From: Bauldia sp.
Lineage (GTDB): Bacteria; Pseudomonadota; Alphaproteobacteria; Rhizobiales; Kaistiaceae
Assembly: GCA_046349035.1 (NCBI GenBank)
Contig: JAXMDC010000002.1
Span: forward strand, 237,093 to 301,092
Length of the DNA: 64,000 nucleotides
Reading direction: 5' to 3'
Shown here: positions 3,455-38,758 of the stretch, piece by piece
Layout of the letters: each line of letters opens with the position of its first letter
Position numbering within the stretch: the first letter of the stretch is position 1
The notes under the pieces: generated by a model
What the model was told of the DNA's origin: nothing
What the model saw: only the letters and a program-made list of their open reading frames with translations
Database searches by the model: none
Made by a program: the position numbers and the translations under genes

Positions 3455-3661
3455 TCAGCGGCCGACCCGTGCCGCCAGCCACCAGATCAGCAGCCCGATC
3501 AGGAAGAAGCCGACCCCGAACGGCCCGGCGATCGCCCAGCCGTCGCGCTCGGTCAGCCCGAGGAACAGCGTACAGCCGCCCGAGGTCAGCATCACCAGCA
3601 GGCCGAAGCCGGCAAAGAGGGCGCGGAAGAAGCCGAGCGGGCGGCGGGGCGGTGCGTTCAT
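3455..3661 (-). CDS. Small integral membrane protein (2 TM segments). Paralogous to the C-terminal module of the next gene.
   Basis: 68 aa. Two hydrophobic helices. The C-terminus GLLIWWLAARVGR matches FFLTWLSGRVGR at the end of the 3674..4468 protein. Confidence 0.5.
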   Translation of the reverse strand: MNAPPRRPLGFFRALFAGFGLLVMLTSGGCTLFLGLTERDGWAIAGPFGVGFFLIGLLIWWLAARVGR

Positions 3662-3673
3662 GGCGGTTCCCTC

Positions 3674-4468
3674 TCAGCGTCCAACGCGGCCCGAAAGCCA
3701 GGTGAGAAAGAAGCCGATCGCGAAGGGGAGGGCGACCAGCGCGTATTCCTGCCATCCCAGCGTGTCGAGGCCGCTTCGCGGACCGAAGAGCCCGGTCAAA
3801 GCGTAGCCGCAGCCGCCGACAAAGAGGATGAGGAGGCCGCATGCGATGAACAGCGCACCGATGGCGCGGATTGCGTGGCCGAGCGGCGTCCGCTCCGGCA
3901 CGGCGAAGCCGGGCAGGCGGCCGCGCCGTTTTTGCGGCGCCGTGGCGCCGAGGACGAACGCGGCGCCGAAGGCGAACGGCAGCATCACCGCGCTCAGCAT
4001 TTCCTGGAAGCCGCCCGAGGTCCCCGCCGCCCACAGGACGAGGCCGGCGCAGCCGAGCATCAGCAGCCCGCCGAAATTGAGCGCGAGGAGGCGGACGAAG
4101 CCGAGGCGGGCGCGCGTCCCGCCGCCGACCGGTGCGTCGCTATGCGGTGAGGGCGGCGGTGCCGCGCCGGTTTGCTCGCGCGCCCGGCGCGCGGCTCGGA
4201 TCGCCCAAACGAGGCGGGCAATCCCGATCGCGGTGATGGCGATGTAGAGCGGCGTCTCGCTGCTCCAGCCGTAGCCGTAGCTCTGCACCAGCTGCCCGCC
4301 GCCGAGGATGATCAGCGCGACGCCCTGCGCGAAGGGGAGGAGCGGCGGGCGCGGCGGCGGTGGGGGCAGATCTGGGACGGCCATCGCGGGAGGCCTAAAG
4401 CCGGTCAGGGCGGCGCACAAGCCAGCCAGCGCTCGCGGATCGAAGATGCCGCCGCCGATCGGCGTCAC
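3674..4468 (-). CDS. Multi-pass membrane protein of unknown function. Contains a repeated ~65-aa membrane module. GTG start.
   Basis: 264 aa with several TM helices. The C-terminal ~70 aa are homologous to the 68-aa protein downstream. A 12-nt spacer separates it from the neighbouring genes. Confidence 0.5.
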   Translation of the reverse strand: MTPIGGGIFDPRALAGLCAALTGFRPPAMAVPDLPPPPPRPPLLPFAQGVALIILGGGQLVQSYGYGWSSETPLYIAITAIGIARLVWAIRAARRAREQTGAAPPPSPHSDAPVGGGTRARLGFVRLLALNFGGLLMLGCAGLVLWAAGTSGGFQEMLSAVMLPFAFGAAFVLGATAPQKRRGRLPGFAVPERTPLGHAIRAIGALFIACGLLILFVGGCGYALTGLFGPRSGLDTLGWQEYALVALPFAIGFFLTWLSGRVGR

Positions 4469-4480
4469 ACCGCCGTTCGC

Positions 4481-5044
4481 TTAGCGGGTGACCCCCGCAC
4501 AGCCCGGCACAGGCAGATCGAAGGTATAGGTCTCGCCGTCGTAGGGGATGGAGAGGCGGCCGCTCTTGCAGGGATCGACGCCTGCGCTCTCGAAGTAGAA
4601 CCACTTCGTTCCGTCGCCGAAGTGGCCAAGCGCCTGCTTGAAGGCGCCGGTCAGCACGACCGACAGTCCCTGCAGTCTCGGCGGCATGTCGGCGGGAGAA
4701 ATCGCCTTGAGTGCCGGCTGGCTCGAGGTGCTCGCGGTCAACGCGGGGATGGTGTCGAAGGTGGCCTCGCCGCCGGGCGAGACATGCATGTGGGCGACGC
4801 CGACGATTACATACTGGTCGAGGAACTTGCGCGCCGTTTCGTCGGCGTTGGGCGGCATCAAAGGCGAGGCCATCCACATCAGGAGGACGATGTCGTTGGC
4901 GGCGCGGCCGTCGGTGATGATGAGGTAGTCGTTGGCCGCCGCCTGCGGGGTGGTCCGCCACTGGCGCGCCTCGGCGCTCTGGCCTCCGGCCACCGCGAAG
5001 AGCATGGCGGCGAGGCAAAATTGCAGGACGCGGCGAGGATACAT
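4481..5044 (-). CDS. Secreted hypothetical protein.
   Basis: 187 aa. Signal peptide MYPRRVLQFCLAAMLFAVAGGQSAEA, then a soluble domain containing Cys pairs. Part of the same minus-strand gene train. Confidence 0.55.
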   Translation of the reverse strand: MYPRRVLQFCLAAMLFAVAGGQSAEARQWRTTPQAAANDYLIITDGRAANDIVLLMWMASPLMPPNADETARKFLDQYVIVGVAHMHVSPGGEATFDTIPALTASTSSQPALKAISPADMPPRLQGLSVVLTGAFKQALGHFGDGTKWFYFESAGVDPCKSGRLSIPYDGETYTFDLPVPGCAGVTR

Positions 5045-5117
5045 GCGGTCGCTCCCATGGACTTGCGTCGGTTCCGGCGAAAGTAGCAGACCGGTCCGGC
5101 TGGCGGCAGCGTCCGGC

Positions 5118-5498
5118 CTAGCCGCGGTCGGCGCGGCGCACCAGGTAGGAGCCGACCGCGAGGACCGCGACCACGCCGGCGAACCAGACGAACTGGCCGC
5201 CTTGCGTTCGCGGATCGACGACGCAGCCGCCGATCAGCACTGCTGGCGCGCCGACGGCGATGCAGGCGATGCCGAGCCAGCGGAGACCGCGATTGCCGCG
5301 CGAAAGCCGAGGCGCAAACGCCAGGAGCGTCAGCGCTACCCAGGCGCCGATATAGGTGAGCGTCTCGCCGGTAAGGATCGTCGACCGCGGCGTGGTGAGC
5401 GCGATGATGGCGACGATGCCGGCGGCGCCGAGCACCGCGACCAGCGCGATCGTCACCCAGCGCCCGCTGCCGGGCGGCGTCGGTGCGCCCTCGGCCAT
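5118..5498 (-). CDS. Integral membrane protein, hypothetical.
   Basis: 126 aa with 3-4 predicted TM helices (VTIALVAVLGAAGIVAIIAL..., YIGAWVALTLLAF..., VVAVLAVGSYLV). Confidence 0.5.
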   Translation of the reverse strand: MAEGAPTPPGSGRWVTIALVAVLGAAGIVAIIALTTPRSTILTGETLTYIGAWVALTLLAFAPRLSRGNRGLRWLGIACIAVGAPAVLIGGCVVDPRTQGGQFVWFAGVVAVLAVGSYLVRRADRG

Positions 5499-13757: not shown

Positions 13758-13895
13758 ACCATGCGCAGCATGGTGGAGGGGGCGGGGGACGAGCGCCCCC
13801 GCGGGCCTGTAGCCCGGATGAAGCGGAGCGAAGTCCGGGGCCGCGTTAGGGCGGTCGCTCCCGCATTCCGCTGCCGCTCCATGGCGGCTACGGGC

Positions 13896-14078
13896 TCACC
13901 GAGGGACGTTGTTCCATTGCGAGACGCAATCGCCGATGACGAACAGCGGGATGCCGAATATCACGAGAATCAGGCTGATCGCGCTGAAGAGACAGCCCGA
14001 GCCCGCGCCGTAGTTCGGTGGCCGCATAAGCCGGGCGCCGAGCGATTCCTTGGGCGGCTCGGGGGCTGGATCGGTCAT
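13896..14078 (-). CDS. Small hydrophobic protein (60 aa), translationally coupled (ATGA) to the upstream membrane protein. Last gene of the radical-SAM operon.
   Basis: MTDPAPEPPKESLGARLMRPPNYGAGSGCLFSAISLILVIFGIPLFVIGDCVSQWNNVPR: charged N-terminal half, hydrophobic Cys-containing C-terminal half. Confidence 0.35.
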   Translation of the reverse strand: MTDPAPEPPKESLGARLMRPPNYGAGSGCLFSAISLILVIFGIPLFVIGDCVSQWNNVPR

Positions 14079-14500
14079 GCTTGTGCGTCGGTTGGAGGGG
14101 CCGGCGGCGATGCGGCGGGTCTCGGCCGCCAGGGCCAGGCCACCAGAACCGAGCCCGCGAAGAAGAAGCAGGCGATGACGAACGCGCTCCCTGCTGTCAC
14201 CACTATCTCTGCCACCACCTCCAAAGCCGGCCGGCCGGCAAGCGGATTCCAGATAGCCATTGGCGCGAACGCGTAGACGAATGCACCGAACAAGAGGGCA
14301 CTGAATCCGCCGAGGTTGCAAACAACGAGTCCAATCCACCTCGCCACAACAGCGCGAGCCGCTGCCGGTTGCCAAGGCAATGTCCCTGCGAGAGCTAAAA
14401 TCCCGACGAGAAAAAGGAACCCAGTTTCAGGCCGCAGCTGGTGGGTGGCCGATGCGATGCCAAAGGCACCGGAGGCGCCGGAGGCAACCACAATAGCCAT
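14075..14500 (-). CDS. Integral membrane protein (4 TM helices), second gene of the radical-SAM operon.
   Basis: Start at MAIVVASGASGAF... (tail of the 703-aa artefact ORF). 53 nt downstream of the radical-SAM stop. Confidence 0.5.
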   Translation of the reverse strand: MAIVVASGASGAFGIASATHQLRPETGFLFLVGILALAGTLPWQPAAARAVVARWIGLVVCNLGGFSALLFGAFVYAFAPMAIWNPLAGRPALEVVAEIVVTAGSAFVIACFFFAGSVLVAWPWRPRPAASPPAPPTDAQA

Positions 14501-14553
14501 CGCGATAGCGATACCTTTCCACCCGCGATCCGGCTCCTCACGATCCGTTCCGC

Positions 14554-15972
14554 TCACGCCTCCACTCCGCGCCGGAGCCGCTCGCGCATCTCGCCGATGC
14601 GCCCGTTGCGGTAGAACAGGTTGTACGTGTCGAACGGGATGATCTGCCCGGCTGGCGTCAGGAAGTGGACGCAGGAGCGCTTCACCCGGCTGAGGCAGAA
14701 ATTGTGCGCGTCGAGGAATTCGACGACGGCGATGCGGAACATGTTGTCGTAGCCGAGCCCCGCCGGCACCGGCACTTGCGGCAGGCAGCAGAGGAGGGCT
14801 TCGAGCCGCTCCGGCGTGTTGCACTCCTGCGTCGCCAGCGAAAAGAACTCGAACACCTTCTGTCGGAGCGCCGGGTATTTCTCGAACGACACCGCGTTCG
14901 GCAGCGCCTCGATGAGATCGTCCTTGGGGAAGAAGGAGGTGATCGGCGTGATCGCCCGCCCGTTCCTGAGCGCATAGCCGATGGCGATCGATTCCGGATT
15001 GCAGGGGAGGGGGATGATGTCGCTCTCGCCGAAGGCGGTGCCGGCGGCGATGATCGCCCGGCGGACTTCCGAGAGCAGCACGCGGTCGCGCTTCTTGTCG
15101 AAGCCGAGGTTGCGGCCGGCGTCCTGGATCGGCTGGAAGGTGACGCCGCGCACGCATTTCCAATCGAGCGCGTAGTCGACGATCGCGCCGACCTCGTCGT
15201 CGTTGACGCCGCGCTTCAGCGTGACGACGAGGGTCGTCGAGATATTGCGGGCTTCCAGCGCCTCGAGCGCCTGGCGGCGGATGCGGCTGAGGTCGGCGCC
15301 GCGCAGCGTCTTCAGCGCCTCGGGGCGGAGCGAGTCGAACTGGAGATAGACCTCGAAGCCCGGCTTGAAGCCGGCGAGCGCATCGGCGAAGGCGGCGTCC
15401 TCGGCGATGCGAATGCCGTTGGTGTTGATCATCACGTGGCGGATCGGCCGCGCCTTGGCCATGCCGATGATGGTGAGGATATCCGGGTGCAGCGTCGGCT
15501 CGCCGCCGGAGAGCTGCAGAAGGTCCGGCTCGCCCTCGCTGGCGACGAGGGCGTCCATCATGAACTCGATTTCCTTGAGCGGCCGGTGCAGCGTTTTCGC
15601 CGTTCCGCTCTCGGCAAAGCACACCGGGCAGTTGAGGTTGCAGGCTTCGTTGACGTCGATCAGCGCCAGGCACGAGTGCTGCTCGTGATCGGGGCAGAGG
15701 CCGCAATCGTAGGGGCAGCCAAGGTCGGTCCGCGCCTGAAACTCGTGCGGCCGGTCGCCCGGTTTGATGTAGTCGCGGCAGAGCTTGTAATAGGCGGCGT
15801 CGGTCGAGATCAGCGCCTTCTGCACGCCATGCTGCCGGCAGCGCTTCTGGTAGTAGACCTCCTCGCCCTCGATCAGGATCTTGGCCGGCACCAGCGCCAG
15901 GCACACCTCGCAGAGCGAGGTCGTTTGGCCGAGAAACACATAGGGCGCGATCTTGCGGGTCGGGGCGTTCAT
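14554..15972 (-). CDS. Radical SAM enzyme with an extra N-terminal Cys cluster (zinc-ribbon/rubredoxin-like).
   Basis: 472 aa. The canonical CNLNCPVCF (CX3CX2C) motif follows N-terminal CEVC...C and CPYDCGLCPDHEQHSC clusters. Further C-terminal Cys residues (CC...C...C) are present. Confidence 0.85.
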   Translation of the reverse strand: MNAPTRKIAPYVFLGQTTSLCEVCLALVPAKILIEGEEVYYQKRCRQHGVQKALISTDAAYYKLCRDYIKPGDRPHEFQARTDLGCPYDCGLCPDHEQHSCLALIDVNEACNLNCPVCFAESGTAKTLHRPLKEIEFMMDALVASEGEPDLLQLSGGEPTLHPDILTIIGMAKARPIRHVMINTNGIRIAEDAAFADALAGFKPGFEVYLQFDSLRPEALKTLRGADLSRIRRQALEALEARNISTTLVVTLKRGVNDDEVGAIVDYALDWKCVRGVTFQPIQDAGRNLGFDKKRDRVLLSEVRRAIIAAGTAFGESDIIPLPCNPESIAIGYALRNGRAITPITSFFPKDDLIEALPNAVSFEKYPALRQKVFEFFSLATQECNTPERLEALLCCLPQVPVPAGLGYDNMFRIAVVEFLDAHNFCLSRVKRSCVHFLTPAGQIIPFDTYNLFYRNGRIGEMRERLRRGVEA

Positions 15973-16182: not shown

Positions 16183-16785
16183 TCACTCCCCCGGCAGCGG
16201 CCAGCCGGCGGCGGCGAAGACCTGACGGCGCACGCCCTCGCGCAGTTCCTCGGCAAGGCCGTCATCGTCGACCGCGCGGGCGAGCACCATGCCGCCGACC
16301 GTCATCGCCGCGAGGGCCAAAGCCCGCTCGCGCCGCTCAGCAATGCGGCCGCCGAGGTTCTCCGCGAACACCGCCACCATCATGTCGAGCACCTCGCGGA
16401 ATGCGCCCTTGGTGACGGCGCTGCCGCGCGCGACGTCGCTCGGGAGGCCGATCATCGGGCAGGAGCCGTCGCGGTCGTCGAGATGGTCGCGCGAGAGATA
16501 GGCGTTGACGATCATCGCCGCGAGCGAGCGCCCGCGCGCCGCGGGATCGATGTTCCTCGTCTGCCAGGCCGGCCGGCGCGGGCTGGCGTTGAACTGGCGA
16601 ACCGCGTGCGCGTAGAGATCCTCCTTGGAGGCGAAGTGCTTGTAGAAGCCGCCGCGCGTCAGCCCGGCCTCGGCCATCACCTCGTCGATGCTGACATCGG
16701 AGAAGCCGCGCCGATTGAAGAGCTTGCGCGCGCTGTCGACGATGCGGCGGCGCGTCTCCGCCTTTTGCGCCGGCACATGCGGCAT
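16183..16785 (-). CDS. TetR/AcrR-family transcriptional regulator.
   Basis: TRRRIVDSARKLFNRRGFSDVSIDEVMAEAGLTRGGFYKHFASKEDLY is a classic TetR N-terminal HTH. Divergent from the 16915 gene. Confidence 0.85.
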   Translation of the reverse strand: MPHVPAQKAETRRRIVDSARKLFNRRGFSDVSIDEVMAEAGLTRGGFYKHFASKEDLYAHAVRQFNASPRRPAWQTRNIDPAARGRSLAAMIVNAYLSRDHLDDRDGSCPMIGLPSDVARGSAVTKGAFREVLDMMVAVFAENLGGRIAERRERALALAAMTVGGMVLARAVDDDGLAEELREGVRRQVFAAAGWPLPGE

Positions 16786-16914
16786 GACCGTTTCCCCCAT
16801 TCTCTCGTTTGGCGAGAGGCTAGCGCGGCAAAATCGGATGTTCTTGAACATCCTTTGCGCAGCCGTCAACGTTACGGCGCCGGCGGGTTCCCGGTGGAGC
16901 GGGGGAGAGCGACG

Positions 16915-17280
16915 ATGACTTGGGTGCTGTGGCTGAACACCGTGGCCGAGACGCTGATCGCTGTCGGCATGTTTGCCGTGCCCGATCAGTTCTTTCCCGG
17001 CGCCGCCGGCCTATCCAGCTCGATCGCCCGAGCGTTTGCCTTCGCCATCCTCGCGGTCGCCTTCATCAGCTACCGCGCCACCTGGGCCGGCACCTCGCGC
17101 GAGACGGTCACGGCGATCGTGCTGATCCTCCTCGTCTATCACGCGCTTCAGCTTCTGGCGCAGTTCGTCTGGGCCGGGCTCTCCCCGCCGATGCTGATCC
17201 CGCCGGTGATCATCCACACCGTCGCCTGCGCGCTGCTCGGCCTCTACTTCGCGCGCCTCCGCTCGCCGGCGGCTGCCTAG
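16915..17280 (+). CDS. Small integral membrane protein (4 TM), divergently transcribed from the TetR gene and the likely TetR target.
   Basis: 121 aa, starting at MTWVLWLNTVAETLIAVGMFAV. 129-bp divergent intergenic region. Confidence 0.55.
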   Translation: MTWVLWLNTVAETLIAVGMFAVPDQFFPGAAGLSSSIARAFAFAILAVAFISYRATWAGTSRETVTAIVLILLVYHALQLLAQFVWAGLSPPMLIPPVIIHTVACALLGLYFARLRSPAAA

Positions 17281-17308
17281 TGAAAGGGGAGGGGGCGCCA
17301 GTGCCCCC

Positions 17309-17839
17309 TCAGCCCTCCCACACATACGTCCGCGGCCCGTAGGGCGCATCGTAGCGCGAGAGCATGGTGCCGAAGGCGCCGTTGCCGGGGCGCGGGTGGA
17401 GCGTCTCGTCGAGCGGCAGCAGCACGTCGTCGCTGACCTGCCAGAACGCCGAGAGCCCTTCGGCGGCGGGGCCTTCCAGGCGATAGAGCCTCGCCTCGGG
17501 ATAGCCGGCGATGCCGGTCGCGGCGCTGACCGCGCCCTCGCTGACCAGGCGGTCGTTGCCGGCGGTGCCGACGAGAGCGAGCCAATAGCTCGCCGGCGCG
17601 CCCTCGCTGCCGCCATAAAGCACGAGCTGCACCTTCAGCCGCGCGCAGGCGGCGACCACGCACGGCATCCGCCCCTCATAGACGCCGCGGATCGGCGCCC
17701 CGCCGGCGTTCCGCTCCGGGTAGGGCGGATCGAAGGTGGCGGTGCGAAGGCGCGGCCGCGACGCCTCGGCCTGAACCAGCGCGCCGGCCCCGAAGGCGGC
17801 GGCGATCAGCGCAACGGCGACAAGCTTTCCGGCGGTCAT
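17309..17839 (-). CDS. Periplasmic hypothetical protein.
   Basis: Start at MTAGKLVAVALIAAAFGAGALVQA (signal peptide). Two Cys residues. The longer ORF upstream reads through an lgt-derived remnant in the wrong frame. Confidence 0.5.
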   Translation of the reverse strand: MTAGKLVAVALIAAAFGAGALVQAEASRPRLRTATFDPPYPERNAGGAPIRGVYEGRMPCVVAACARLKVQLVLYGGSEGAPASYWLALVGTAGNDRLVSEGAVSAATGIAGYPEARLYRLEGPAAEGLSAFWQVSDDVLLPLDETLHPRPGNGAFGTMLSRYDAPYGPRTYVWEG

Positions 17840-17865
17840 GGCGTAGTCCTCCCGGCTGCGGCACG

Positions 17866-17945
17866 CCCCTCCCGCCCGCGCGCCAGCATCAGCGTGCCAT
17901 AGACGAGCAGTGTGAGGCAAAGGAGGTGGAAGGTTGAGCGGGTGC
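17866..17945. repeat. About 75-80 bp imperfect direct copy of the 3' end of the lgt-family gene (18886..18965), with a frameshift. A gene remnant or att-like duplication.
   Basis: CGCGCCAGCATCAGCGTGCCATAGACGAGCAGTGTGAGGCAAAGGAGGTGGAAGGTTGAGCGGG aligns with CGCGCCAGCATCAATGTGCCATAGGCGACGAGCGCCAGGCAAAGGAGGTGGAAGAGGTTGAGCGGG at about 85% identity. Confidence 0.6.
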
Positions 17946-17974
17946 GAACAAAGCGCGAGGACTTGGGGGGTGGC

Positions 17975-18691
17975 TCACGCCTTCCTGACCGGCGCAGGAT
18001 CGCGTCGCTCTGCATCGGTCAACAGCAGCCAACCGGCAACGACCACGACTCCAAGCGACATGACGCCAAAACACGCCGAGACGCCGAGCACGGCGGGGCT
18101 TGCGTGGGGGCTGAGAAGGGCCCCAAGGGGCGCAAGGAGACTAATTCCTCCAAGAAAACAAACAAACCGGGGAAGTCGCCTGTTGCGCACCGGTGCCGGA
18201 CAGCCGTCGGCCGGTGACCAGCCGCCCGGAAGGAAGAAGAACAGCAACCCGATACCAAGGACGGCCGCCGGGACGCTGGCGGTGAAAAGCGCGGCGTCGT
18301 TGCGGGCCGCGTCGCTCGTTGGCGGTGGCCAGAACGCGAACTCTGCGAGCTGGATTGAAAAAACCGCCAGCAGGAGCGACCCGTAAAAGAAAGCCATCAA
18401 CCCGTAGGCCTGACCGATAAGGGTCCGGCGCACGTCGATCTCAATGCGGTCGCCGAGCAGCCCCTTGAGCATCGGCGATGAAGACCGCCCGGTGTACATC
18501 GCCACAAGAGGGCGAAGCGACAGGACGCCGAGAATGATTGGAATCTGAACGGAGCCCGCGCCGGGCCGGAGCCAATACAGGGCGCTGGGAGCCACAAACG
18601 CGATTCCGAGCGTGCTACCGATTGCCCGCGCGTGGTAACGGCGTCGATCTCGGGCGCCGGCAAGCGTCTCAGAGGGCCGCGATATCCTCAT
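17975..18691 (-). CDS. Integral membrane protein, hypothetical. Lies within the block bracketed by the lgt-end direct repeats.
   Basis: At least 6 TM helices. Start tentatively at MRISRPSE. Confidence 0.4.
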   Translation of the reverse strand: MRISRPSETLAGARDRRRYHARAIGSTLGIAFVAPSALYWLRPGAGSVQIPIILGVLSLRPLVAMYTGRSSSPMLKGLLGDRIEIDVRRTLIGQAYGLMAFFYGSLLLAVFSIQLAEFAFWPPPTSDAARNDAALFTASVPAAVLGIGLLFFFLPGGWSPADGCPAPVRNRRLPRFVCFLGGISLLAPLGALLSPHASPAVLGVSACFGVMSLGVVVVAGWLLLTDAERRDPAPVRKA

Positions 18692-18872
18692 CGCTCGCCG
18701 CCTCGCCTCGGCGCGCTTGTGCAACGCCCTCCAGGATCGCCGCATGGGCCTTGGCGTCGATCGGCGCGGCGTTGCGGGCGGCGATCGCCATCAGGAGATC
18801 GGCCGCCTCGTCCTGGTCGGCCTCCGGCCATTGCCGAGCCTCGGCGACCGCATCTTCAAAGCGCTTGTTCAT
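18669..18872 (-). CDS. Small acidic protein resembling the 'putative addiction-module component' (TIGR02574-like) antitoxin family.
   Basis: 67 aa: MNKRFEDAVAEARQWPEADQDEAADLLMAIAARNAAP.... Helical, acidic. No cognate RelE/ParE-like toxin ORF was found next to it. Confidence 0.35.
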   Translation of the reverse strand: MNKRFEDAVAEARQWPEADQDEAADLLMAIAARNAAPIDAKAHAAILEGVAQARRGEAASDEDIAAL

Positions 18873-19573
18873 TGCCCGATCCTAGCACCCCGCCCGCGCG
18901 CCAGCATCAATGTGCCATAGGCGACGAGCGCCAGGCAAAGGAGGTGGAAGAGGTTGAGCGGGCCGAGCACCGCCGCGTAGGGCTTCAGGAACTCCCAGAG
19001 GAAGCGCTGCCCGGCATAGACGATGACGAGGAGATAGAAGCCGTTCGCCATGAAGAACGCATCGCGCCGCGCGAAAGCGAGGAGGGCATAGGCGAGGAAG
19101 GCCGCCATCGTCAGGCTCTCGTAGAGCGCCACCGGGTGGCGGGGGATGCCGTCGCCGAAATCCCAACCCCAACTCCCGCCGGTGGCGATCCCATAGGTGT
19201 GGTCGTCGAGGCCGGCGAGCAGGCAGCCGATCCGCCCGACCGCGACCGTCGTCGCAAAGCCGGCGACGAAGAGGAGGCCGGTCGAGCCCTTGATCCCTGC
19301 GATGCGCTTATAGACCTCGACCGTGAAGATCGCCCCGGCGAGCGAGCCGGCGATCGAGCGGCCGATGGCCGGAATTCCGGTGAGTGCGAGATTGGCGGTG
19401 CCGAAACCGTAGGCGCCGACGACCGAGCCGGCGATCAACGCCGCGACATAGGCCGACGAGAGCCGCCGCTCCGGGTCGCGGTCGGTGCCTTTCAGGCGCC
19501 AGAGATACACCCCCGCCGTCACCAGCGCCGACGCCGCCGCGGCGAGAAGGTCGAAGAGCGTGTGGACGGGCAT
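18869..19573 (-). CDS. Prolipoprotein diacylglyceryl transferase (Lgt)-family membrane protein.
   Basis: 234 aa. GSWGWDFGDGIPRHPVALYESL resembles the Lgt signature (G...R(H)P..LYE). Multiple TM helices. Real C-terminal part of the 463-aa ORF. Confidence 0.6.
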   Translation of the reverse strand: MPVHTLFDLLAAAASALVTAGVYLWRLKGTDRDPERRLSSAYVAALIAGSVVGAYGFGTANLALTGIPAIGRSIAGSLAGAIFTVEVYKRIAGIKGSTGLLFVAGFATTVAVGRIGCLLAGLDDHTYGIATGGSWGWDFGDGIPRHPVALYESLTMAAFLAYALLAFARRDAFFMANGFYLLVIVYAGQRFLWEFLKPYAAVLGPLNLFHLLCLALVAYGTLMLARGRGARIGQ

Positions 19574-38191: not shown

Positions 38192-38269
38192 CGCCGGGCG
38201 CCGAAGAGACCCGGCGGGACGCCGCCCGGCGGCGTCCGCATATCCATGTTGCTCAAGGAGAATGTGGCT
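38192..38269 (+). ncRNA. ROSE-like RNA-thermometer 5'UTR of hsp20 (candidate).
   Basis: About 78-nt leader with stacked hairpins, including a perfect one: GGACGCCG-cccg-CGGCGTCC. The 3' end UUGCUCAAGGAGAAUGUGGCUAUG resembles the ROSE SD hairpin (UUGCU... GGAG... GGCUAUG). Confidence 0.4.
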
Positions 38270-38758
38270 ATGACGACCTTCGATCTTACTCCGCTGTGGC
38301 GTTCCACCGTGGGCTTCGAACGGCTCTTCGACCTCGTCGATAAGGGCCTGTTCGATGACGAGCAGAAGTACCCGCCCTACGACATCGTCCGCACCGGCGA
38401 GGACCGCTTTCGCATCACCCTCGCGCTCGCCGGCTGGCAGCCCGAGGACGTGACCGTCACCGAACACCAGAACGTGTTGACGGTGGCCGGCCAGCGGAAC
38501 GGCGCGGCCCGCGCCGACGAGGGCCGCGACTATCTCTATCGTGGCATCGCCTCCCGCGCCTTCGAGCGGCGCTTCACGCTCTCCGACTATGTCGTGGTCA
38601 AAGGCGCCACTTTCGACAACGGCATGCTGCACATCGACCTCGAGCGCCAGGTGCCCGAGGCGATGAAGCCGCGTCGCGTCGAGATCGGGCGCCAGGGCAC
38701 CACTCTGGCGGCGCCGCCCGGCAAGGCGGCCAAGCTGGAGCACGTCAGGGCCGCCTGA
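38270..38758 (+). CDS. Small heat-shock protein (Hsp20/alpha-crystallin family).
   Basis: MTTFDLTPLWRSTVGFERLFDLVD...YPPYDIVRTGEDRFRITLALAGW...GMLHIDLER: IbpA/HspA-like. Strong AAGGAGA SD 8 nt upstream. Confidence 0.85.
   Translation: MTTFDLTPLWRSTVGFERLFDLVDKGLFDDEQKYPPYDIVRTGEDRFRITLALAGWQPEDVTVTEHQNVLTVAGQRNGAARADEGRDYLYRGIASRAFERRFTLSDYVVVKGATFDNGMLHIDLERQVPEAMKPRRVEIGRQGTTLAAPPGKAAKLEHVRAA

Follow-up and report, generated by a model that had tools for sequence, protein, structure and literature searches.

A radical-SAM enzyme of the Tes/TrsS superfamily encoded with an Lgt-family paralogue and small cysteine-containing hairpin proteins: a scattered trio in Bauldia sp.

The window, i.e., the whole stretch of 64,000 nucleotides that was analysed, comes from a metagenome-assembled genome of Bauldia sp. 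It contains, at 14554..15972 on the minus strand, the gene of a radical S-adenosylmethionine (radical-SAM) enzyme of 472 amino acids. The finding reported here is that this gene belongs to a rearranged instance of a three-component membrane system, apparently undescribed and built around a new clade of the Tes/TrsS superfamily. Enzymes of this clade, seen in hundreds of bacteria, are nearly always encoded together with a paralogue of the Lgt family and with small two-helix membrane proteins carrying a near-invariant Cys (hereafter hairpin proteins). In the window the three components are present but scattered, the operon being fragmented in this genome.

The enzyme gene was defined from its open reading frame (ORF) and from Pfam, NCBIfam, PDB and fold evidence. 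Reading of the sequence gives an N-terminal site C21-x2-C24-x20-C45-x2-H48, a second site C86-x3-C90-x2-C93 followed by H96, H99 and C101, and the radical-SAM motif C111-x3-C115-x2-C118, whose three Cys are invariant among 132 homologues. In the first two sites, C21, C24, C45 and H48 as well as C86, C90, C93 and H96 are kept throughout the superfamily. The remaining Cys are C273, C324, C384, C395, C396, C426 and C434. As judged from these motifs, the enzyme has the domain plan of GDGT-MAS/Tes, i.e., a rubredoxin-like site, then the [4Fe-4S] site of the N-terminal part, the SAM cluster and, at the C-terminus, a domain rich in Cys, with four predicted metal sites. A first-pass annotation, made from the letters of the window alone, had described the 472-residue ORF, its Cys clusters, the radical-SAM motif, the C-terminal Cys and two hydrophobic ORFs next to it, one of them joined by an ATGA overlap. 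All these elements exist, and its proposal of more than one metal centre agrees with the four sites predicted by motif. The protein is soluble, with neither a hydrophobic or transmembrane segment nor a signal peptide. No selenocysteine (Sec) codon is required to read the gene. Its G+C content at third codon positions (GC3) is 0.918, and the ratio of non-synonymous to synonymous substitution rates (dN/dS) against an 82% identical relative is 0.23, i.e., the gene is under purifying selection.

Pfam recognises Radical_SAM (PF04055) with 71.4 bits for a cut-off of 29.5, and an N-terminal zinc ribbon, Zn_ribbon_HMPTM (PF23545), with 61.6 bits. The name of this second domain, like the names of many homologues in the source records of the Joint Genome Institute (JGI), would make the enzyme a 7,8-dihydro-6-hydroxymethylpterin dimethyltransferase. 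Such an activity can hardly be credited: the name stems from MJ0619, which subsequent work established as GDGT-MAS and in which the activity on pterin was not reproducible (PMC9433317). Moreover, no pterin or methanopterin family is found among the Pfam-scanned ORFs of the window near the enzyme or among the Pfam-labelled genes of the related loci described below.

The top NCBIfam model is TrsS (NF045646), with 310 bits for a cut-off of 490 and an alignment over the full length (residues 16-458 against positions 2-437 of 441). Tes (NF045702) follows with 272.8 bits for a cut-off of 450, the aligned profile positions being only 1-295 of 486. The enzyme is therefore below the curated cut-offs of both Tes and TrsS. 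Pfam finds no SPASM, twitch or RRE domain in it, and the SPASM-type maturase models of NCBIfam reach at most 47 bits, on the radical-SAM core only. The sole PDB sequence match is 7TOL (GDGT-MAS of M. jannaschii, E 2e-62). An AlphaFold2 model was built from 68 homologues. Its mean predicted local distance difference test (pLDDT) is 89.3 and its predicted template-modelling score (pTM) is 0.88; residues 376-405 are of low confidence. With this model, Foldseek ranks 7TOM/7TOL first (template-modelling (TM) score 0.81, E 2e-38). SkfB, SuiB, MoaA and viperin come next with TM scores of at most 0.39, the radical-SAM core alone being common. The enzyme is thereby assigned, on family models and predicted fold, to the Tes/GDGT-MAS-TrsS radical-SAM superfamily and to neither curated family. 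No clear match to a characterised housekeeping radical-SAM family, which the first-pass annotation regarded, together with a lack of conservation of the two downstream membrane genes, as fatal to its proposal, appeared.

Within this superfamily the enzyme belongs to a separate bacterial clade with its own invariant set of C-terminal Cys. The clade is marked by an LLCCLP motif, and its invariant C-terminal Cys are C324, C395, C396 and C434, kept in the near relatives and in three homologues at 45-48% identity (P0121, P0123 and P0127). Most of the other members of the superfamily have C324, C328, C433, C434 and C448 instead. A relative outside the clade, P0126 (50% identical; loci L089/L090), is devoid of C395, C396 and C434. 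The enzyme family is large: at least 8000 matches, many of them 73-83% identical.

The C-terminal part also differs from that of GDGT-MAS. In the alignment to 7TOL, Cys438, Met439 and Cys470 of GDGT-MAS become Val416, Val417 and Asp448, and only Cys456 is retained (Cys434). Met439 is the labile ligand of the C-terminal cluster of GDGT-MAS (PMC9433317), and the aligned Cys presumably are the remaining ligands of that cluster. C324, C395, C396 and C434 would bind a differently ligated C-terminal cluster. Tyr459 of GDGT-MAS is replaced by Phe437. Met439 and Tyr459 are fully conserved across 1000 archaeal homologues and Tyr459 stands beside the lipid terminus; the Y459F variant of GDGT-MAS nevertheless retains activity (PMC9433317). 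Finally, the segment of the second lipid pocket, measured between alignable anchors, counts 112 residues in GDGT-MAS vs. 78 in the enzyme, i.e., 34 less, and belongs to the low-confidence part of the model. Since the enzyme falls below the NCBIfam cut-off and is devoid of the C-terminal cluster ligands, Met439 and Tyr459 of GDGT-MAS, it appears related to Tes without being its orthologue. The Tes/GDGT-MAS likeness proposed in the first-pass annotation is thus borne out for family and fold (7TOL, E 2e-62; TM score 0.81) but not for orthology.

These differences bear on one functional guess, i.e., that the enzyme is a bacterial tetraether-synthase orthologue joining the tails of two membrane lipids, of the branched glycerol dialkyl glycerol tetraether (brGDGT) or diabolic-acid type, with the Lgt paralogue and the hairpin proteins as mere membrane helpers. 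This is unlikely. It is true that GDGT-MAS is the nearest solved structure and the only PDB match, that this role was put forward for bacterial Tes homologues (PMC8941075), and that canonical Lgt binds phosphatidylglycerol (PMC4728403), so that the paralogue may bind a phospholipid too. However, the Tes model is matched with 272.8 bits instead of 450 and over its N-terminal 295 of 486 positions only, the archaeal-invariant Met439 and Tyr459 are Val417 and Phe437 here, and the aligned C-terminal Cys are mostly replaced. The invariant Cys and the multiple copies of the hairpin genes would also be left unexplained. Bradyrhizobium, in which the system is found, is not known as a maker of membrane-spanning lipids.

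The neighbourhood was studied with a scan of one genome per species, which gave 323 relatives of the enzyme; of these, the 80 best were examined together with flanks of 6 kb. These 80 loci include Bradyrhizobium, Rhodoplanes, Tardiphaga, Roseiarcus, Reyranella, Aestuariivirgaceae, Xanthobacteraceae and others. An Lgt-family paralogue gene of about 230 codons lies directly upstream on the same strand in 78 loci, and the contigs of the other two begin at the enzyme gene. The association was also seen from the other side. A search of metagenome contigs with the profile of the paralogue found the enzyme adjacent in 70 of the 74 loci with room to judge: directly downstream in 61, upstream on the same strand in nine, and absent in four. 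In the only one of these nine that was inspected (L096), a membrane protein with a G-G-C motif lies in between.

The paralogue of the window (18869..19573, minus strand, 234 amino acids) lies about 2.9 kb upstream of the enzyme. It scores 55.8 bits on Pfam LGT (PF01790; cut-off 24.9) and at most 32 bits on the Lgt equivalogs of NCBIfam (cut-offs from 119 to 428; 334 for the best-scoring one). As a single sequence it gives only spurious matches in the PDB, and a profile is needed to reach E. coli Lgt: that of 11 members finds 5AZB with E 3.7e-5. R114, R145 and E152 of the paralogue are invariant and aligned to R143, R239 and E243 of 5AZB, and the RHP-x-x-L-YE motif is kept. In Lgt, R143, R239 and E243 are essential for diacylglyceryl transfer, in which phosphatidylglycerol donates its diacylglycerol, via R143 and R239, to the thiol of a Cys placed just within the periplasmic leaflet (PMC4728403). 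Other parts of the Lgt site are changed. An invariant Cys, C117, takes the place of N146, giving G-R-x-G-C (G-R-I-G-C-L-L-A-G in the window) vs. G-R-x-G-N-F-x-N-x-E in Lgt. H103 is not kept, the aligned residue being Glu or Ala. Between the two motifs, where Lgt has its head domain, the paralogue has about 28 residues vs. about 95.

Genes of small two-helix membrane proteins, of about 60-100 codons, adjoin the enzyme in 79 of the 80 loci. They are directly downstream in 76, and in two they stand between the enzyme and the gene upstream of it; in one locus G-G-C members were spotted by eye, and one locus has none. The first downstream match begins at a median of 48 nucleotides past the end of the enzyme alignment. 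Downstream copies number one (35 loci), two (21), three (12), four (4), five (2) or six (2). The profile of the family finds 155 ORFs, one of them in the window (3455..3661). In the consensus, a variable Pro-rich start is followed by R-S-G-C and by a first helix closing in L-L-L-P-G-L-C; then come a short loop with a conserved Asp, a second helix in which a Gly is conserved, and a basic C-terminus. The motif (P/G)-G-x-Cys, with which helix 1 ends, is near-invariant (Cys 148/154, Gly 148/155, Pro 134/155), and the first Cys is less conserved (93/134). The Bauldia/Aestuariivirga branch has (S/T/A)-G-G-C instead. These ORFs are real genes under purifying selection: in nine of them from Bradyrhizobium (one or two per locus), GC3 ranges from 0.77 to 0.89 and the pairwise dN/dS has a median of 0.34. 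Neither Pfam nor NCBIfam has a model for the canonical members. By the positive-inside rule both ends are cytoplasmic and the invariant P-G-x-Cys is at the periplasmic side, in the outer leaflet. The hairpin proteins do not carry the canonical lipobox, in which [LVI][ASTVI][GAS]C closes a signal peptide. Their motif L-L-(P/S/T)-G-(L/G/A)-C runs on into hydrophobic residues and the second helix, and only the G-G-C subgroup comes near a lipobox. The link of the enzyme to small Cys-containing membrane proteins, foreseen in the first-pass annotation, is therefore correct for this family (79 of 80 loci) but not for the two ORFs that it named, discussed below.

Small genes in tandem copies, lying beside a radical-SAM enzyme with several clusters, are a typical sign of precursor-maturase pairs. 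The enzyme could then be a maturase of the type acting on peptides that the ribosome makes and that are modified after translation (RiPPs). It would act directly on the small proteins, e.g., by a thioether or C-C cross-link at the conserved Cys, with a radical step free of lipid. The near-invariant Cys would agree with this, as would the position of the peptide maturases SkfB and SuiB, next in structure after GDGT-MAS although by the common core only. Several features make it rather unlikely: (i) no SPASM or peptide-recognition domain is found by Pfam, and the SPASM-type matches of NCBIfam are weak and limited to the core; (ii) the hairpin proteins are conserved throughout the two-helix core and variable only in the Pro-rich N-terminal tail, the reverse of a leader and core arrangement; (iii) the loci have no conserved protease or exporter; (iv) the obligate partner of the Lgt family points to lipid chemistry.

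The nearest relatives of the window are two loci on contigs of 707 kb and 514 kb (L082 and L083), whose enzymes are 83% identical to that of Bauldia. In both, the Lgt-family gene overlaps the start of the enzyme gene by 20 nucleotides, and a hairpin gene of 85 codons overlaps its end by 8 nucleotides. Directly upstream of this operon lies a cluster of bufferin-type peptide genes (4077..7244 in L082, 3427..7244 in L083), with a sigma-70 factor (and NrsF in L083), BufA1, MbnB_TglH_ChrH, HvfC_N and DoxX. The window has no such cluster at the equivalent position. Farther away, the trio persists with the same Cys pattern at 48%, 46% and 45% enzyme identity (cluster representatives), in differing gene orders. 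L084 (59% GC) has the Lgt-family gene, a 100-residue gene, a 63-residue gene and the enzyme; L085 (49% GC) has a 94-residue gene, the Lgt-family gene and the enzyme; L088 has a membrane protein of at least 145 residues, the Lgt-family gene and the enzyme.

Outside the clade the partners change. The Lgt-family paralogue is not adjacent in the three out-of-clade relatives inspected. P0136 (36% identical; locus L086), with the other Cys pattern, has as neighbours a DsbD-type membrane protein and a DVU_1556/ArsM-like methyltransferase. From this locus one may suspect chemistry on metalloids or thiols, and not on lipids, in other branches of the superfamily. It also carries, beside P0136, a protein of 198 residues with an HExxH-like motif. 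The neighbour of P0148 is a protein of 219 residues of no named family. P0126 lies with CutA1 and a soluble protein of 185-192 residues, a phage-type integrase being adjacent, and has no adjoining Lgt-family paralogue or hairpin gene. A membrane-Cys partner common to the whole superfamily was considered and rejected, the neighbours in other clades being unrelated proteins.

These outside relatives give some weight to a further explanation: the enzyme would act on an unrelated small molecule, e.g., a metalloid or a cofactor, as suspected for TrsS-type relatives, with the membrane proteins as an anchor or as a relay of thiol, sulfur or electrons. TrsS has the top NCBIfam score, the relative with another Cys pattern sits with the DsbD-type protein and the ArsM-like methyltransferase, and an invariant active-site Cys is present in the Lgt paralogue. 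On the contrary, the score is 180 bits under the TrsS cut-off, the 80 loci have neither a methyltransferase nor a DsbD gene in common, and the pairing with the Lgt family is clade-specific, being absent from the three outside relatives checked. A small-molecule substrate is thus considered improbable.

In the window itself the system is dispersed. The Lgt-family paralogue, 72% identical to the corresponding gene of L082/L083, is under purifying selection (dN/dS 0.31). It is separated from the enzyme by a lineage-specific block on the minus strand (16183..18745) that splits the operon. The block comprises a TetR regulator (16183..16869, Pfam TetR_N), a protein of 203 residues (17309..17920, no Pfam match) and a membrane protein of 256 residues (17975..18745, no Pfam match, GC3 0.73), all on the minus strand. 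The 80 related loci contain no counterpart of any of its genes. The TetR gene and a short ORF for a membrane protein on the plus strand (about 16920..17280) diverge, and the two look like a typical regulator-target pair.

A canonical hairpin protein of 68 residues (…MLTSGGCTLF…IWWLAARVGR) is encoded at 3455..3661 on the minus strand, 11 kb downstream of the enzyme. It matches the family profile hidden Markov model (HMM) with E 6e-7, is 47% identical to the 85-residue protein of L082/L083 and has a GC3 of 0.93. On these resemblances it is the best candidate for the true partner of the enzyme in this genome. Both this gene and the Lgt-family paralogue, the most informative component, had escaped the first-pass annotation. 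Next to the hairpin gene, at 3674..4468 (minus strand), a membrane protein of 264 residues with six hydrophobic segments ends in the module LFVGGCGY…FLTWLSGRVGR. By BLASTP its residues 191-264 match the 68-residue hairpin with E 2e-6 and its residues 119-145 with E 0.01; it looks like a fusion of hairpin modules. Both genes belong to a same-strand run of membrane-protein and secreted-protein genes (3455..5498, minus strand), which includes also a protein of 187 residues with a signal-peptide-like start (4481..5044, minus strand) and one of 126 residues containing …LIGGCVV… (5118..5498, minus strand). This run looks like a second home for genes of the hairpin family, apart from the enzyme. Since the enzyme and the Lgt-family paralogue are still under purifying selection, the system is probably functional, though no longer one operon.

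Two ORFs follow the enzyme at the place where the canonical hairpin gene would be expected, and the first-pass annotation had taken them for the other members of a three-gene operon. The first, hydrophobic, lies at 14075..14557 (minus strand) and reads as 160 residues from a GTG at 14557, which overlaps the stop codon of the enzyme, or as 141 residues from an ATG at 14500. NCBI annotates the 160-residue form as hypothetical U1E56_01390, and one gene caller (ENA) skips it. Its GC3 is 0.66, without codon-position periodicity, vs. 0.87-0.93 for the neighbouring genes, so its coding status is doubtful. The second (13896..14078, minus strand; NCBI hypothetical U1E56_01385) encodes 60 residues, overlaps the preceding stop by ATGA and has a GC3 of 0.80. 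Its product is made of a Pro-rich N-terminus, SGC, a single hydrophobic helix and GDC.

In a word-indexed search of 5.8 billion proteins, the 160-residue and the 60-residue products each match themselves alone; this search needs common words of five residues, and very distant relatives could escape it. Neither the 141-residue nor the 60-residue ORF has a significant tblastn match in the 80 related loci. For the former the matches were at chance level, and for the latter they were weak but positionally consistent, which led to the hairpin family. Pfam and NCBIfam give nothing meaningful for these two ORFs, and neither has a paralogue in the window. The HMM of the hairpin family gives 3.9 bits (not significant) for the 60-residue ORF and −12.4 bits for the larger one. 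BLASTP of the 60-residue product against the 68-residue hairpin gives E 0.046 across 9 residues, also not significant. A search with the family profile in every frame of 13800-14620 found no remnant of a hairpin gene. Both ORFs are thus lineage-specific ORFans and not conserved partners of the enzyme, and the three-gene unit of the first-pass annotation is not confirmed as a conserved one. They occupy the place of a lost canonical hairpin gene; the smaller one, by its layout, may belong to the hairpin family in a truncated and diverged form.

It remains very improbable that the 141-residue and 60-residue products are a membrane subunit and a precursor peptide of the enzyme. The start and stop codons overlap (GTGA and ATGA), the 60-residue ORF has a gene-like GC3 (0.80), and its Pro-rich, SGC and single-helix layout recalls the hairpin proteins. 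Nevertheless, both match only themselves in the protein search and have no counterpart in the 80 loci, the larger one does not follow the codon bias of the genome, and the relatives with 83% identical enzymes have a different, canonical partner of 85 residues at the same position. The low GC3 values of 17975..18745 (0.73) and 14075..14557 (0.66) are found at both edges of the rearranged enzyme locus, which suggests recently acquired or decaying sequence. Scans of the enzyme locus for promoters, terminators and Rfam families gave nothing relevant. In the window as a whole a single Rfam family passes its threshold, a ROSE thermoregulator RNA (RF00435) at 38194..38276 on the plus strand (52.9 bits, gathering score 45).

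The reading preferred here is that the trio carries out a dedicated S-lipidation of the hairpin proteins, combined with radical chemistry on a lipid tail. It is put forward as plausible, the doubts being slightly the heavier. The Lgt-family paralogue would move a glycerolipid onto the invariant Cys of a hairpin protein at the periplasmic leaflet, as Lgt does with the lipobox Cys. Since the positive-inside rule places this Cys in the outer leaflet, an Lgt-type active site would meet it there. The cytoplasmic Tes-like enzyme would abstract a hydrogen from the hydrocarbon tail of a lipid, leading to a C-C or C-S bond, its substrate being either the protein-bound lipid or the donor of that lipid. 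In GDGT-MAS, hydrogen is abstracted at the end of the lipid tail, the radical is parked as a C-S bond on the C-terminal cluster, and the C-C bond is then formed (PMC9433317). The common theme of the trio would be the conjugation of thiols and lipids in the membrane. A more explicit version, rather doubtful, is that of a dedicated protein-lipidation pathway in aerobic Alphaproteobacteria, including Bradyrhizobium, in which the enzyme then couples a lipid tail covalently from the cytoplasmic side. Candidates for the product would be a macrocyclic lipid or a membrane-spanning lipid, in either case anchored to a protein, or else a thioether joining lipid and Cys.

Several observations weigh against S-lipidation followed by radical chemistry. 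No member of any of the three families is characterised. The invariant Cys is predicted to be periplasmic and the enzyme is devoid of both signal peptide and transmembrane segment, thus the enzyme cannot easily touch this Cys directly. The Lgt-family paralogue has lost the essential H103 and N146 as well as the head domain, and may not be a diacylglyceryl transferase. The P-G-L-Cys of the hairpin proteins departs from the canonical lipobox. As for the enzyme, (i) it scores slightly higher on TrsS than on Tes; (ii) a TrsS-like relative adjoins an ArsM-like methyltransferase and not lipid genes; (iii) it keeps only one likely Cys of the C-terminal cluster of GDGT-MAS, i.e., of the cluster that carries the lipid intermediate; (iv) its region of the second lipid pocket is 34 residues shorter and modelled at low confidence.

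Both papers on the discovery of Tes mention homologues of unknown role in bacteria not known for tetraethers (PMC8941075, PMC9433317). Zeng et al. counted 456 bacterial homologues, including "various Proteobacteria", and guessed a role in branched tetraethers (PMC8941075). Lloyd et al. noted homologues in bacteria making no biphytanyl chains (PMC9433317). A 2026 review adds nothing further on the function of bacterial Tes homologues, and TrsS appears in the literature only as an entry in a selenoprotein list. A literature search for a link of Lgt to radical-SAM or Tes enzymes found no paper, and the trio is apparently undescribed in the literature searched. One large clade of bacterial Tes homologues gains a concrete and testable context, that of a near-obligate trio. 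The trio is found in Bradyrhizobium and Rhodoplanes, both cultivable and genetically tractable, so its function could be settled quickly. In B. diazoefficiens or B. japonicum its operon is placed upstream of typA. If the lipidation reading is true, (i) the bacterial Tes homologues would receive a first function, with a new kind of lipid-protein conjugate; (ii) radical-SAM lipid chemistry would reach protein-bound lipids; (iii) the Lgt fold would have a second, private use; (iv) caution would be needed before counting such genes as markers of branched-tetraether producers in environmental surveys.

Compared with known systems, the enzyme is closest in structure to GDGT-MAS/Tes (MJ0619; 7TOL, 7TOM; NF045702). 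It shares with it the fold (TM score 0.81), the radical-SAM core and an identical rubredoxin-like spacing (C9-x2-C12-x20-C33-x2-H36 in MJ0619, PMC9433317). The N-terminal CX3CX2C site with its His and the C-terminal strand motif F-x-D-x-x-N-F … H … IPF-x-x-YN are common as well. On the contrary, the enzyme is bacterial, aerobic and tied to an Lgt-family paralogue and hairpin proteins. It has C324/C395/C396/C434 instead of the aligned Cys, Val and Phe instead of Met439 and Tyr459, and a second pocket shorter by 34 residues. TrsS (NF045646, uncharacterised) gives a full-length alignment and the top score, but with 310 vs. 490 bits. Moreover, no Sec codon is needed here, and the relative with another Cys pattern has ArsM-like and DsbD-type neighbours, not an Lgt-family one.

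With Lgt itself (PF01790; 5AZB), the paralogue has in common a score above the Pfam threshold, the equivalents of R143, R239 and E243, and RHP-x-x-L-YE. It differs in being far under the equivalog cut-offs, in having Cys for N146, no H103 and about 28 vs. about 95 residues between the motifs, and in being encoded beside a radical-SAM enzyme. Mss of Thermotoga is likewise a radical-SAM enzyme of bacteria, with a proposed role in the coupling of lipid tails, but it belongs to another radical-SAM family and to anaerobes, and the paper reports no Lgt-family or hairpin partners (PMC13159169). The lipidated RiPPs DybA/DybH (PMC13056109) are comparable in concept: a small product, a cytoplasmic metalloenzyme and S-lipidation at a conserved Cys. 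They use canonical lipoboxes, the Lgt, LspA and Lnt of the cell, and an MNIO (multinuclear non-heme iron oxidase) enzyme (PMC13056109). The trio described here has instead a dedicated Lgt-family paralogue, a non-canonical P-G-x-C inside a retained hairpin, and a radical-SAM enzyme.

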